Positions 1-4,535 of a stretch of DNA of 4,535 nucleotides are shown here, in pieces. Position numbers and translations under genes: made by a program. Numbering within the stretch: position 1 is the first letter of the stretch; each line of letters begins with the position of its first letter. The DNA lies in IMG/VR virus record IMGVR_UViG_2675903289_000012, one strand, 5' to 3'. The stretch is from a virus (lineage: Duplodnaviria; Heunggongvirae; Uroviricota; Caudoviricetes). The notes below the pieces were generated by a model that worked only from the letters and a program-made list of their open reading frames with translations, searched no databases and had not been told where the DNA came from.

Positions 1-28
1 ACACTATCAATAAGTTGGAGTCATTACC
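1..28 (+). mobile_element. IS1 terminal segment (right-end inverted repeat side); the body of the element lies upstream of the window
   Basis: Bases 1-28 (acactatcaataagttggagtcattacc) match from memory the last 28 bp of IS1, including the insB stop codon TAA at 11-13 (...K-H-Y-Q-stop). The exact reverse complement occurs at 4485-4512. Not verified by alignment. Confidence 0.8.
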
Positions 29-410
29 CGTTAAAACATCTGCAGATAATGACGTTGACTTGGATACAGATGGATTCAGACAACTGAGGATATCGTGCCC
101 ATCCCCTTCTGCCAGCGGTGCGATTATATTGAGAAAAGCTTCTTATGAATTCGGCAAAAGTATAGGTGTATTTGATTTTGCAAACAATGCATCACCAGCG
201 ACGATGACATTTTTGATCCCAATATATAAAGATGATGATTTTGATTCAGATACTGTTGGTTTTACATTTGCGTTCAAGATGCCAAGAGGCCAGTTTTTTG
301 TAGATGTAAAAGAAAACGGGAATATCAGAGCTGGAGTTAATGTTAATGGCGAGTCGGGAGTGACCTACGAAAATTGCAAATTGAATATGAAAGATATTAA
401 TGATGATTAA
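15..410 (+). CDS. Hypothetical protein fragment; probable 3' remnant of an AT-rich gene truncated or displaced by the IS1 insertion (Asp-rich, acidic C-terminus ...KDINDD)
   Basis: Open frame runs from inside the IS1 end to TAA at 408-410. The listed start is a TTG within IS1, and an in-frame TAA lies just upstream in the IS1 sequence as recalled. First in-frame ATG is at 204, with no convincing SD. Composition is clearly lower in GC than the downstream genes. No family recognised. Confidence 0.35.
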   Translation: MESLPVKTSADNDVDLDTDGFRQLRISCPSPSASGAIILRKASYEFGKSIGVFDFANNASPATMTFLIPIYKDDDFDSDTVGFTFAFKMPRGQFFVDVKENGNIRAGVNVNGESGVTYENCKLNMKDINDD

Positions 411-417
411 TATATAA

Positions 418-442
418 GCCGCCAGAAATTGGCGGTTTTTTT
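418..442 (+). terminator. Rho-independent terminator (7-bp stem GCCGCCA/TGGCGGT with terminal G-T wobble, 5-nt loop GAAAT, followed by a run of 7 T)
   Basis: Read directly: gccgcca-gaaat-tggcggt followed by ttttttt, 8 nt after the stop of the upstream ORF. The T-run is only on the + strand, so the terminator is oriented for + strand transcription. Confidence 0.7.
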
Positions 443-447
443 ATAGT

Positions 448-451
448 GGAG
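448..451 (+). promoter_or_regulatory. Shine-Dalgarno (GGAG) for the N-like gene, 5 nt upstream of ATG 457
   Basis: gtGGAGacagtATG read directly. Confidence 0.5.
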
Positions 452-456
452 ACAGT

Positions 457-1848: not shown

Positions 1849-2927
1849 ATGATACCGTTTTACTTCGGGTTTCCGGTCGCGAATGGGGCGGCTGGACATC
1901 CGTCCGTATCAGTGCGGGCATTAACCGTATTGCCCGGGATTTTAATGTTGCCATTACCACCCGCTGGCCCGGAAGCCGGGATTATCAACCCCGGATAAAA
2001 AATGGTGAGCTGGTTGAAGTGCTTATCGGGGATGAGCCTGTGCTCACCGGATATGTGGAGGCACTACCGCTTCGTTATGACGCCAGCAGCGTCAGCATGG
2101 GAATTGTCGGGCGAAGCAAAACAGCCGATCTGGTTGACTGCTCTGCTTTGCCACTCCAGCAGAGCGGAAAAAACCTGCTCAGAATAGTCAGTGAACTGGC
2201 TGCGCCATTTGGCATCACCGTTGTTGATGCTGGCGTGCCGCAGACAGCGGTGATTGATGCCCAGCCGGAACACGGCGAAACCGTTGCCGATTGTCTTAAC
2301 CGGTTACTGGGGCAGGTTCAGACGCTGGCTTATGACGATGAATGCGGGCGACTGGTTCTGGGAAAACCCGGAACAGGTAAAGCGGCGACGGCGCTGGTGC
2401 TGGTGCTGGGAGAGAATATTCTTTCCTGTGACACGGAAAGAAGCATCAGAGAGCGGTTTTCTGAATATCAGGTCAGTGGGCAGCGCCCGGGCAACGACGA
2501 TGATTTTGGTGAGGCCACCATTGCCGCAATACGTCAGACCATTCAGGACAGTGGCGTGACCCGTTATCGCCCTTTGTTGATTCAGCAGTCAGGCACAGCA
2601 ACGACAGCAACCTGTAAGGCCCGTTGTGAATTTGAAGCGCGCCAACGGGCTGCGCTTACCCGTGAGACAACATATACGGTTCAGGGCTGGCGGCAGGGCA
2701 GTGGCGCGTTATGGCGTCCGGGGTTATCTGTCATCGTTTTCGACCCGCTGAATAATTTTGATAATGATGAACTGGTGATCGCAGAAGTTACCTATAACCA
2801 GGACGACCGGGGCACGACGACTGAATTACGGGTTGGCCCGGCAGATGCTTATCTCCCCGAGCCTGTTACCGCCAGGAAGAAAAAAATGTTGAGGAGGATT
2901 TCTGATGAACGGGTTTTCTCTTCGTAA
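1845..2927 (+). CDS. Mu P-like (gp44) baseplate hub protein (P2 gpD / late-control-D family)
   Basis: 360-aa ORF, translationally coupled to N by an ATGA overlap at 1845-1848. Size and position in the N-P-Q-V order are as in Mu. Assignment is by synteny and general resemblance, not alignment. Confidence 0.7.
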   Translation: MNDTVLLRVSGREWGGWTSVRISAGINRIARDFNVAITTRWPGSRDYQPRIKNGELVEVLIGDEPVLTGYVEALPLRYDASSVSMGIVGRSKTADLVDCSALPLQQSGKNLLRIVSELAAPFGITVVDAGVPQTAVIDAQPEHGETVADCLNRLLGQVQTLAYDDECGRLVLGKPGTGKAATALVLVLGENILSCDTERSIRERFSEYQVSGQRPGNDDDFGEATIAAIRQTIQDSGVTRYRPLLIQQSGTATTATCKARCEFEARQRAALTRETTYTVQGWRQGSGALWRPGLSVIVFDPLNNFDNDELVIAEVTYNQDDRGTTTELRVGPADAYLPEPVTARKKKMLRRISDERVFSS

Positions 2928-3438
2928 TCTGATTTCCCGGGCTGTCATCACGGCGGTGGATTCCGCCAGAAAGTGTCAGTCTGTAGGGTTGAAAATGATA
3001 GCCGGAGATCAGAAACAACACGTTGAGCACCTTGAACCTTATGGTTTTACATCTGCCGCACAGAACGGTGCTGAGGGCGTTGCTTTATTTCCGGCGGGCG
3101 ATCGTTCTCATGGTGTGGTTGTGGTCGTGGCTGACAGACGTTACCGGCTGAAAGGACTGAAACGTGGGGAAGTGGCGCTTTATGACGATCTGGGACAGTC
3201 CGTTGTCCTGACCCGTTCCGGTATTGTGGTGGACGGGGCCGGGAAGGCCATAATTTTTAAAAACGCGCCTAAAGCGCGCTTTGAAATGCCAGTCGAATCC
3301 ACCGCCGATATTACTGACAATTGCGACAGTGGCGGACTCAGCATGCAGCAAATGCGGCAGGCCTACAATGCCCACAAACATACCGAAAATGGTGATGGTG
3401 GCGGGATCACTGACACGCCGGATCAACCGATGGGCTGA
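2905..3438 (+). CDS. Mu Q-like (gp45) baseplate central spike / puncturing protein (P2 gpV-like)
   Basis: 177-aa ORF with a strong SD (GAGGAGG at 2891-2897, 7 nt before ATG 2905). Overlaps the P 3' end by 23 nt. Gly/His-rich C-terminal tip (NAHKHTENGDGGG). Size and position fit gp45. Confidence 0.7.
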   Translation: MNGFSLRNLISRAVITAVDSARKCQSVGLKMIAGDQKQHVEHLEPYGFTSAAQNGAEGVALFPAGDRSHGVVVVVADRRYRLKGLKRGEVALYDDLGQSVVLTRSGIVVDGAGKAIIFKNAPKARFEMPVESTADITDNCDSGGLSMQQMRQAYNAHKHTENGDGGGITDTPDQPMG

Positions 3439-3443
3439 AAATC

Positions 3444-3649
3444 ATGATGATTAATGTTAACGGGCGACCCGTGTCGACCGGGGCTTCGATCGACCTTCTG
3501 ACGCGTGCTGTGATTATTTCGCTTTTTACATGGCGGCGTGCCGGGCGTGATGATGCACCACGGATATTTGGATGGTGGGGGGATACCTGGCCTGCGGTTC
3601 AGAATGATCGCACGGGGTCGCGTTTGTATCTGTTGCGACGCAGCAAGCT
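3444..3649 (+). CDS. Mu V-like (gp46) baseplate protein, 5' part only; the 3' end lies in the N-masked region
   Basis: ATG at 3444, 5 nt after the Q stop. Motifs WRRAxxDDxPxxxGWWGD and GSRLYLLRR resemble the phage GP46 family as I recall it. The true end is not visible; the ORF-track end at 4208 is an artefact of reading through N bases. Confidence 0.6.
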
Positions 3650-4150
3650 NNNNNNNNNNNNNNNNNNNNNNNNNNNNNNNNNNNNNNNNNNNNNNNNNNN
3701 NNNNNNNNNNNNNNNNNNNNNNNNNNNNNNNNNNNNNNNNNNNNNNNNNNNNNNNNNNNNNNNNNNNNNNNNNNNNNNNNNNNNNNNNNNNNNNNNNNNN
3801 NNNNNNNNNNNNNNNNNNNNNNNNNNNNNNNNNNNNNNNNNNNNNNNNNNNNNNNNNNNNNNNNNNNNNNNNNNNNNNNNNNNNNNNNNNNNNNNNNNNN
3901 NNNNNNNNNNNNNNNNNNNNNNNNNNNNNNNNNNNNNNNNNNNNNNNNNNNNNNNNNNNNNNNNNNNNNNNNNNNNNNNNNNNNNNNNNNNNNNNNNNNN
4001 NNNNNNNNNNNNNNNNNNNNNNNNNNNNNNNNNNNNNNNNNNNNNNNNNNNNNNNNNNNNNNNNNNNNNNNNNNNNNNNNNNNNNNNNNNNNNNNNNNNN
4101 NNNNNNNNNNNNNNNNNNNNNNNNNNNNNNNNNNNNNNNNNNNNNNNNNN

Positions 4151-4506
4151 GCTGGGATGGCGTAGAGGGGACGCCGGTATTGCCAGCGGGAACGCAGATC
4201 CAGCGTGATAATCAGGTGACCTNNNNNNNNNNNNNNNNNNNNNNNNNNNNNNNNNNNNNNNNNNNNNNNNNNNNNNNNNNNNNNNNNNNNNNNNNNNNNN
4301 NNNNNNNNNNNNNNNNNNNNNNNNNNNNNNNNNNNNNNNNNNNNNNNNNNNNNNNNNNNNNNNNNNNNNNNNNNNNNNNNNNNNNNNNNNNNNNNNNNNN
4401 NNNNNNNNNNNNNNNNNNNNNNNNNNNNNNNNNNNNNNNNNNNNNNNNNNNNNNNNNNATTACTACATTCCACAGGGGGGCGCAGGTAATGACTCCAACT
4501 TATTGA
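4151..4506 (+). pseudogene. Probable W-like (gp47, baseplate J family) gene remnant, interrupted by IS1 at 4484/4485 and terminating at a stop inside IS1 (4504-4506)
   Basis: The unmasked island 4151-4222 reads as protein-like in one frame (WDGVEGTPVLPAGTQIQRDNQVT, GC-rich third positions). The same coordinate frame is open across 4459-4484 and then reads 7 IS1-encoded codons to TGA. Position after V matches Mu order. Continuity across the masked bases cannot be checked, so the 5' boundary is not defined. Confidence 0.3.
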
Positions 4507-4535
4507 TAGTGTTTTATGTTCAGATAATGCCCGAT
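4485..4535 (-). mobile_element. IS1, right-end side, inverted relative to the copy at 1-28; the element continues beyond the window
   Basis: 4485-4512 is the exact reverse complement of 1-28. 4513-4535 (tttatgttcagataatgcccgat) continues as the reverse complement of the IS1 insB 3' region (...IGHYLNIKHYQ-stop), with the insB stop on the - strand at 4502-4500. Confidence 0.85.

Follow-up and report, generated by a model that had tools for sequence, protein, structure and literature searches.

Two IS1 elements that bracket a few kilobases of DNA are familiar from the composite transposons Tn9, in which the IS1 copies are direct repeats, and Tn1681, in which they are inverted. Inverted IS1 pairs are known to mobilise the DNA that they enclose, as in Tn1681. 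The Stx2e-converting phage φP27 (NC_003356) carries a module (L48-L52) with the gene order tape measure, DNA circulation, hub, gpV-like, gp46 and baseplate J. The expansion of IS1 in Shigella was described by Hawkey et al. 2020 (PMC7373316); S. sonnei chromosomes have a median of 286 IS insertions, among which IS1 forms the largest class (PMC7373316). The window (the whole stretch of DNA analysed here, 4,535 nt) has the gene order of the φP27 module and, like Tn1681, two IS1 ends in inverted layout. The preliminary description took this arrangement for a possible composite transposon or invertible segment. We conclude, with a probability of about 0.93, that it is a stretch of a defective φP27-like prophage lying between two independent simple IS1 insertions that are fixed in the S. 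sonnei lineage. Nothing suggests that the arrangement moves or inverts as one piece.

As had been noted from the sequence, the 28 nt at positions 1-28 recur without a mismatch as an inverted repeat at 4485-4512; the chance expectation for such pairs is about 1e-10 in the 3,798 non-N bases of the window. Alignment to the annotated E. coli K-12 IS1A (NC_000913 19796-20563) bore out that both termini are IS1 right ends (IRR). Positions 1-28 were the reverse complement of the final 28 nt of IS1A and positions 4485-4535 the reverse complement of its final 51 nt, both without a mismatch. The 23 nt beyond the repeat (4513-4535) code on the minus strand for the InsB C-terminus ...IGHYLNIK, so the right copy does run on into insB as claimed. 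The left IS1 body extends leftward of the window with insA -> insB on the plus strand, and the right body extends rightward with insA -> insB on the minus strand. What appeared as a "perfect terminal inverted repeat" is two IS1 right ends viewed from inside. The features of the window are as follows.

1-28, plus strand: left IS1 stub, final 28 nt (IRR end), 28/28 to K-12 IS1A.
29-37, no strand: inner copy of the left IS1 target-site duplication, CGTTAAAAC; the same 9-mer stands directly before the left IS1 IRL in 12 complete genomes.
29-410, plus strand: AT-rich gene, 3' part (about codons 35-160), phrog_5586, of unknown function; colinear with the 160-aa CDS WP_000594909.1 (NZ_CP065613).
416-448, plus strand: intrinsic-terminator-like hairpin and T-run after the AT-rich gene; 10-pair stem, then TTTTATAGTG.
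457-1848, plus strand: Mu gp43-like DNA-circulation / baseplate hub protein, 463 aa, intact; Pfam DNA_circ_N 3e-36, phrog_184.
1845-2927, plus strand: Mu gp44/GpP-like baseplate hub protein, 360 aa; Pfam GpP-like_1st, Gp44-like_2nd, GpP_4th.
2905-3438, plus strand: Mu gp45-like baseplate assembly protein V, 177 aa; Pfam Phage_Mu_Gp45 2e-26.
3444-3649, plus strand: GP46 family gene, 5' part, the remainder under the first N run; Pfam GP46 1.7e-13.
4151-4484, plus strand: baseplate J/gp47 5' fragment, visible parts; 100% to positions 13097-13168 and 13385-13411 of the E. coli prophage L001.
4476-4484, no strand: inner copy of the right IS1 target-site duplication, GGGGGCGCA; the same 9-mer stands directly after the right IS1 IRL end in 13 complete genomes.
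4485-4535, minus strand: right IS1 stub, first 51 nt from the IRR end, 51/51 to K-12 IS1A.

About 700 nt of the interior lie outside the sequence comparison because they are masked by N, 501 of them at 3650-4150 and 236 at 4223-4458. In the five genomes compared (L001, L003, L006, L007 and L009) the corresponding stretches measured 477 and 216 nt, so that the N runs are too long by 24 and 20 nt. Window coordinates beyond 3650 are therefore shifted, and the true IS1-to-IS1 distance for this allele is 4,412 bp, not 4,456. The unmasked part, 1-3649 with its IS1 stub, was 100% identical to four complete ~4.8-Mb chromosomes.

The enclosed genes are homologues of gp43, gp44, gp45, gp46 and gp47 in Mu order (Pfam DNA_circ_N, GpP-like/Gp44-like, Phage_Mu_Gp45, GP46 and Baseplate_J), and the segment is part of a defective φP27-like prophage with a Mu-type baseplate module. 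Its gp43-gp46 genes had 96% nucleotide identity to φP27 L48-L51, the gp43-like gene alone also 96% to L48. The interior was colinear with φP27 at this identity and with an intact prophage at 99%. φP27 differs in having neither IS1 nor the AT-rich gene between tape measure and L48. That gene (37% GC) has lost its 5' end to the left IS1; it matched phrog_5586 with E=1e-88, and Pfam and PADLOC searches gave no match. Its product is probably a lipoprotein, judging from the lipobox-like motif MTVAILTSCC at the N-terminus. The gp44-like gene holds a (GCTGGT)3 VNTR at about 2393-2410; the copy number is 3-6 in S. sonnei-type genomes, whereas L001, the E. coli relative, has 2. Where φP27 has A8, the gene has an A7 tract (about 2879-2885), which shifts the frame of its last codons relative to φP27, whose hub protein ends ...KKKNVEEDF. 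In complete genomes the GP46 family gene encodes 136 aa. The right IS1 cuts the baseplate J/gp47 gene after codon 198 of 360, and in those genomes the N- and C-terminal Baseplate_J fragments lie on opposite sides of it.

The two IS1 junctions of the window were found in 12 distinct complete ~4.8-Mb chromosomes, among them CP000038 (S. sonnei Ss046). The junction sequences (60 nt left, 77 nt right) were identical in these independently finished chromosomes. In 12/12 they ran into two full-length IS1 copies of 768 bp (one record has 769) that lie on opposite strands and turn their IRR towards each other. The window itself covers 28 + 51 nt of IS1, and we infer the full length and the outer flanks of its copies from these identical junctions. 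The proposal of two full inverted 768-bp copies thus held in all 12 complete genomes. The flanking copies were 99.6% identical to IS1A, from which they differ by three substitutions and in nothing of substance, the terminal sequences being identical. Their terminal inverted repeats are imperfect (18/23 matching). Both the insA and insB' frames are open, with the A6C -1 frameshift motif TTAAAAAAC at IS1 position 307. The called products, of 91, 125/167 and 232 aa, have InsA zinc-ribbon/HTH and DDE_Tnp_IS1 domains (PF03811, PF12759, PF03400). The IS1-to-IS1 spacing was 4,412-4,424 bp across the complete genomes.

Gene order, junctions, duplications and IS1 copies in Ss046 and the other finished S. 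sonnei chromosomes were all the same as in the window, whose unmasked part several of them match at 100% identity; we infer its source to be S. sonnei. The strains differed from each other only in the (GCTGGT)n copy number and in scattered indels. The 21-kb loci were colinear across genomes. S. sonnei 866 (CP022672; PMC6128377) keeps only the right IS1; its left IS1 and the remnant gene have been lost and replaced by an element with IS5-like ends. S. flexneri shows a different IS1-associated deletion. A degenerate 48-nt pattern spanning both junctions, which detects both of them in the complete-genome loci, had 0 matches in genome_contigs and 0 in metagenome_contigs.

Each IS1 was flanked by its own 9-bp direct repeat in the 12 complete genomes, as is usual for IS1: CGTTAAAAC on both sides of the left copy and GGGGGCGCA on both sides of the right copy. 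The inner flanks quoted in the preliminary description, cgttaaaac at 29-37 and gggggcgca at 4476-4484, were given correctly and are the inner copies of these two duplications. CGTTAAAAC is single-copy in the uninterrupted E. coli prophage L001 (9001-9009), and GGGGGCGCA is single-copy at the homologous site in L001 and in φP27, where the right site is empty. Both sites are empty, with single 9-mers, in E. coli FDAARGOS_944. The left site is also empty in S. flexneri SFBU1023 and E. coli ECMA0423, both with a different decay history, which were the sole matches to the plain inner-flank pattern in genome_contigs. The fact that each duplication pairs across a single IS1 and not across the whole unit shows that the segment has not moved as a composite element. 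Separate insertions, which the preliminary description had kept as its fallback, are what the duplications show, and the check that it had proposed, for full IS1 copies with 8-9 bp duplications on their outer flanks, had a positive outcome.

It is highly improbable that the IS1 pair and the enclosed 4.4 kb form a Tn1681-type composite transposon that arrived, or transposes, as a unit. In its favour, both IS1 copies are intact and nearly or fully identical; their ends are complete, the insA/insB frames undamaged and the A6C motif present. However, arrival as a unit would leave one common duplication on the two outer flanks. Here these differ, and each agrees with the flank on the inner side of the same IS1. 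The DNA between the two copies lines up with the prophage on either side of them and with uninterrupted relatives, and its continuity with the DNA outside is a further difference from Tn9 and Tn1681. A search of 72,556 plasmids for a mobilised copy gave no match above 7% coverage, and every complete genome seen had a single locus, adjoining ssrA, with no second chromosomal locus. E. coli complete genomes carry the segment DNA only without an IS1 junction. Despite its layout the locus departs from Tn9 and Tn1681, since its outer flanks have no duplication in common, it occurs at a single location and it carries nothing selectable, and a composite-transposon origin of the structure was rejected on the pairing of the duplications. 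The baseplate-operon fragment and AT-rich remnant that had been called its cargo are indeed present, but simply as the prophage stretch between two independent insertions. An invertible cassette, in which recombination between the inverted 768-bp copies flips 29-4484 so that both orientations occur in a population, is very unlikely. Its substrate exists: the copies are inverted, long enough for RecA recombination, 4,412-4,424 bp apart and 100% identical to each other in 9/12 genomes, and IS-mediated inversions are common in Shigella (PMC7373316). Against this, the segment had its native orientation in 12/12 complete genomes and the inverted allele suggested earlier was seen in none, a count that concerns consensus assemblies, does not reach below consensus level and leaves aside loci grouped as "similar", which could hide an inverted segment. 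Each IS1 also keeps its own matched duplication, whereas flipping would split the pairs, and both interrupted genes are already dead, so an inversion would have no obvious consequence. Inversion was thus rejected for the 12 genomes inspected.

The terminal repeat could also be an assembly artefact, with IS1 stubs wrongly joined to contig ends that no IS1 adjoins. The window is short, its N runs are of imprecise length like scaffold gaps, and it ends in a high-copy repeat. Nevertheless, identical junctions in 12 independently finished chromosomes, continuing into full IS1 copies, leave this explanation next to no probability, and the complete genomes refute it. Since S. sonnei has hundreds of IS insertions with IS1 as the largest class, short-read assemblers would break at both copies and leave a separate contig of about 4.5 kb with short IS1 stubs. 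The exact gp43 protein occurred in 3,271 assembly blocks, in 3,132 of which the longest carrying contig was 2-5 kb, and the same held for the exact gp44 protein in 1,443 of 1,509. As the segment lies on a 2-5 kb contig in about 96% of the assemblies that carry it, the window is probably likewise a common product of short-read assembly, cut off where IS1 copies were collapsed. That it is a whole contig stays presumptive because the stubs are unequal (28 vs 51 nt), which misfits a simple single-k de Bruijn contig end; no assembler k-mer size tried gave a consistent explanation of them. It is unlikely, though less so than the alternatives above, that the inverted IS1 pair gives the 4.4-kb prophage fragment a latent capacity to move as a composite element, or to invert as a cassette at low frequency. 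If it did, some cells, below consensus level, would carry the segment flipped or excised, which could speed further deletion of the prophage; the losses in strain 866 (IS5-associated) and in S. flexneri (IS1-associated) are hints that decay of this kind is continuing.

Under the reading that we prefer, two independent simple insertions, the prophage that received them is of a kind with an HK97-type head and a Mu-type contractile tail and is integrated beside ssrA. One IS1 inserted into the small AT-rich accessory gene that lies between tape measure and gp43 and duplicated CGTTAAAAC; the other, oppositely oriented, inserted into baseplate J/gp47 and duplicated GGGGGCGCA. Each inactivated the gene that it struck and contributed to the decay that IS elements are causing in this prophage.

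The arrangement, which the 2005 reference genome already shows, is ordinary and known. As an example of prophage decay driven by IS1 in Shigella it is textbook material and matters little beyond bookkeeping. It also shows how contigs from short reads come to end in deceptive "terminal inverted repeats" when an IS element is present in many copies, and a short sequence with IS termini at both ends should be read first as an assembly break between independent insertions. The pairing of the duplications, around each IS or across the unit, separates two insertions from a true composite transposon.

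The window carries a perfect 28-nt inverted repeat (1-28 versus 4485-4512), for which the chance expectation is about 1e-10 in 3,798 non-N bases. The annotated IS1A copy of Escherichia coli K-12 (NC_000913 19796-20563) was used as the reference for both ends. The left end matched the right terminus (IRR) of IS1A at 28/28 positions and the right end at 51/51, leaving IS1 stubs of unequal length (28 versus 51 nt). The additional 23 nt on the right were the C-terminal codons of insB. These matches confirm the inverted repeat and the IS1 right ends named in the preliminary description, as well as the 23-bp continuation of the right copy into insB.

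Pfam and PHROG scans of the window interior identified the following features.

29-410: 3' remnant of a small AT-rich gene, 37% GC versus 54.5% in the remaining sequence
416-448: terminator-like hairpin downstream of the AT-rich gene
457-1848: Mu gp43-like DNA-circulation/hub protein (Pfam, PHROG)
1845-2927: gp44/GpP-like hub protein (Pfam, PHROG)
2905-3438: gp45-like protein (Pfam, PHROG)
from 3444: GP46 (Pfam, PHROG)
after GP46: baseplate J/gp47, 5' part where visible (Pfam, PHROG)

A fragment of a baseplate operon plus an AT-rich gene remnant had been proposed as the content, and the gp43-gp47 homologues and the AT-rich 3' part agree with this. Positions 29-4484 were colinear, at 99% identity, with the uninterrupted prophage of E. 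coli FDAARGOS_944 (NZ_CP065613). By this comparison a hypothetical gene of 160 aa was entered by the left IS1 near codon 35, and the baseplate J gene (360 codons) is interrupted by the right IS1 after codon 198. The nearest named phage was the Stx2e phage φP27, which was 96% identical across gp43-gp46 but lacked the AT-rich gene.

To obtain the outer flanks, public assemblies were searched for proteins identical to gp43 and gp44. The window junctions were present verbatim in finished chromosomes of ~4.8 Mb, and the unmasked window (1-3649) was 100% identical to four of them. CP000038, among the finished chromosomes returned, is presumably S. sonnei Ss046. CP022672, also returned, is S. sonnei strain 866 (PMC6128377). 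Structure counts rest on 12 distinct genomes. In all 12, both IS1 copies were complete at 768 bp (769 in one record), lay on opposite strands with IRR inward, and were 99.6% identical to IS1A; in 9 of the 12 the two copies were identical to each other. Both carried the hallmarks of the family: their terminal inverted repeats matched at 18/23 positions, the insA and insB frames were open, and the frameshift motif A6C was there. Every defining feature of IS1 that was tested was present. The left IS1 had CGTTAAAAC at either flank and the right IS1 had GGGGGCGCA. Full 768-bp copies with outer duplications of 8-9 bp had been suggested as a check, and both were found in the 12 complete genomes, with 9 bp duplicated per IS1. 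Each 9-mer was single-copy at the homologous empty site of FDAARGOS_944, and GGGGGCGCA also in φP27. S. flexneri SFBU1023 and E. coli ECMA0423 both had an unoccupied left site.

Duplications that pair across each IS1 singly mark simple insertions that took place independently, and on sequence grounds this is how the structure is best read. One simple insertion entered the small AT-rich gene and duplicated CGTTAAAAC; a second, independent one entered the baseplate J/gp47 gene and duplicated GGGGGCGCA. The separate insertions considered in the preliminary description are thereby supported, as each IS1 has its own duplication. Its other proposal, a composite transposon, was rejected as the origin. 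Arrival as a unit would leave one duplication on the two outer flanks, a pattern not seen; neither a shared outer duplication nor multiple contexts were found, and searches for a second location or a plasmid copy of the IS1-bracketed segment gave none. The inverted IS1 pair does provide a recombination substrate, and homologous inversion between the copies would make the segment an invertible cassette. We consider this very improbable: the opposite orientation, sought in related genomes, was found in 0 of 12 finished genomes, and inversion would part the members of each duplication pair, which was not seen. Rare inversion at the sub-consensus level may occur. An assembly artefact was rejected because the same junctions occur in finished genomes.

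The full AT-rich gene (8900-9382 of the FDAARGOS_944 locus; 160 aa, 37% GC) has its own terminator and lies between the tape-measure gene and gp43; the part in the window spans 29-448. It was found in only some E. coli prophages and is missing from φP27. It had no Pfam or PADLOC match, and matched phrog_5586 (function unknown). Its N-terminus, MTVAILTSCC, resembles a lipoprotein signal peptide with lipobox and was lost through the IS1 insertion. The gene may be a moron, for example one encoding a surface or exclusion lipoprotein.

A hexanucleotide repeat, (GCTGGT)n, lies in frame within gp44 at 2393-2410 and encodes (Leu-Val)n. FDAARGOS_944 had two copies, the window three, and other S. sonnei-type chromosomes 4, 5 or 6, so that otherwise near-identical genomes have gp44 products of 360-366 aa. 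The poly-A tract at the gp44 end (2879-2885) was A7 in the window and in the related ~4.8-Mb chromosomes (loci L002-L011) except L004 (A6), and A8 in φP27 and FDAARGOS_944. With A7 the native C-terminus ...KKKNVEEDF* is replaced by ...KKKMLRRISDERVFSS* and gp44 overlaps gp45 by 23 nt. The base loss is one more minor sign of prophage decay.

Two N runs, 3650-4150 (501 N) and 4223-4458 (236 N), are separated by a 72-nt island (4151-4222). In the five genomes compared (loci L001, L003, L006, L007 and L009) the real stretches were 477 and 216 nt, shorter by 24 and 20 nt; window coordinates past 3650 are therefore shifted, and the real spacing between IS1 ends is 4,412 bp. In this the runs resemble masks without length preservation, or scaffold gaps whose size was estimated. 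The longest contig carrying the exact gp43 protein was 2-5 kb in 3,132 of 3,271 assembly blocks, and likewise for gp44 in 1,443 of 1,509. Short-read assemblies thus routinely yield the inter-IS1 segment as a separate ~4.5-kb contig with IS1 stubs at its ends, and we infer that the window, with its N gaps of imprecise length, is such a contig. Because the S. sonnei reference genome of 2005 already shows this arrangement, as do many genomes finished later, it is already known.

The 21-kb loci were colinear in all genomes inspected, in the order bamD, IS4, prohead-protease remnant, IS3-family element, sheath, tube, tape measure, IS1, window segment, IS1, gp47 3' part, gp48, tail fibres, ssrA (tmRNA), smpB. 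Accordingly, the segment is a passive part of a prophage under dismantling by IS elements. In complete genomes (L003 1-21392) one side of the remnant adjoins ssrA (tmRNA 19480-19842) and smpB; at the opposite side, IS4 and the IS3-family element have cut it to a 120-aa prohead-protease fragment directly beside bamD/rluD. The latter neighbourhood is unlike the E. coli K-12 gene order, which implies a larger IS-associated rearrangement or deletion.

Further changes were observed at this prophage. In S. sonnei 866 (L008 8791-9986) an IS5-like element whose ends read GGAAGGTGCGAA... and whose DDE_Tnp_1/DUF772 transposase has 326 aa stands in place of L003 8762-9986, that is, 43 bp of outer flank, the entire left IS1 and the remnant gene to window 442. 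Its flanking 4-mers are unequal (CTAA versus ATAG), and an IS-associated deletion is thus suggested instead of a simple insertion. S. flexneri SFBU1023 (CP182556) and E. coli ECMA0423 (CP178302) carry the same prophage with another IS1 isoform, which shares ~91% identity with those of S. sonnei, at window-equivalent 487/488, just within gp43. In SFBU1023 an IS3-family piece comes after this isoform, and the sequence then jumps to the DUF4376 tail-fibre-region gene. These two represent independent IS1-driven decay of the prophage in another lineage. The FDAARGOS_944 reference prophage is itself defective (L001 3307-6107 / 18275-19916), with its tail-sheath gene split by ISEc60 and a frameshifted ipaH (T3SS effector E3 ligase) just past the tail-fibre genes; this strain, labelled E. 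coli, therefore appears Shigella/EIEC-like.

The median number of IS insertions per S. sonnei chromosome is 286, with IS1 as the largest class, and almost all conserved pseudogenes are IS-interrupted (PMC7373316). IS-driven dismantling of a prophage is the state expected in Shigella.
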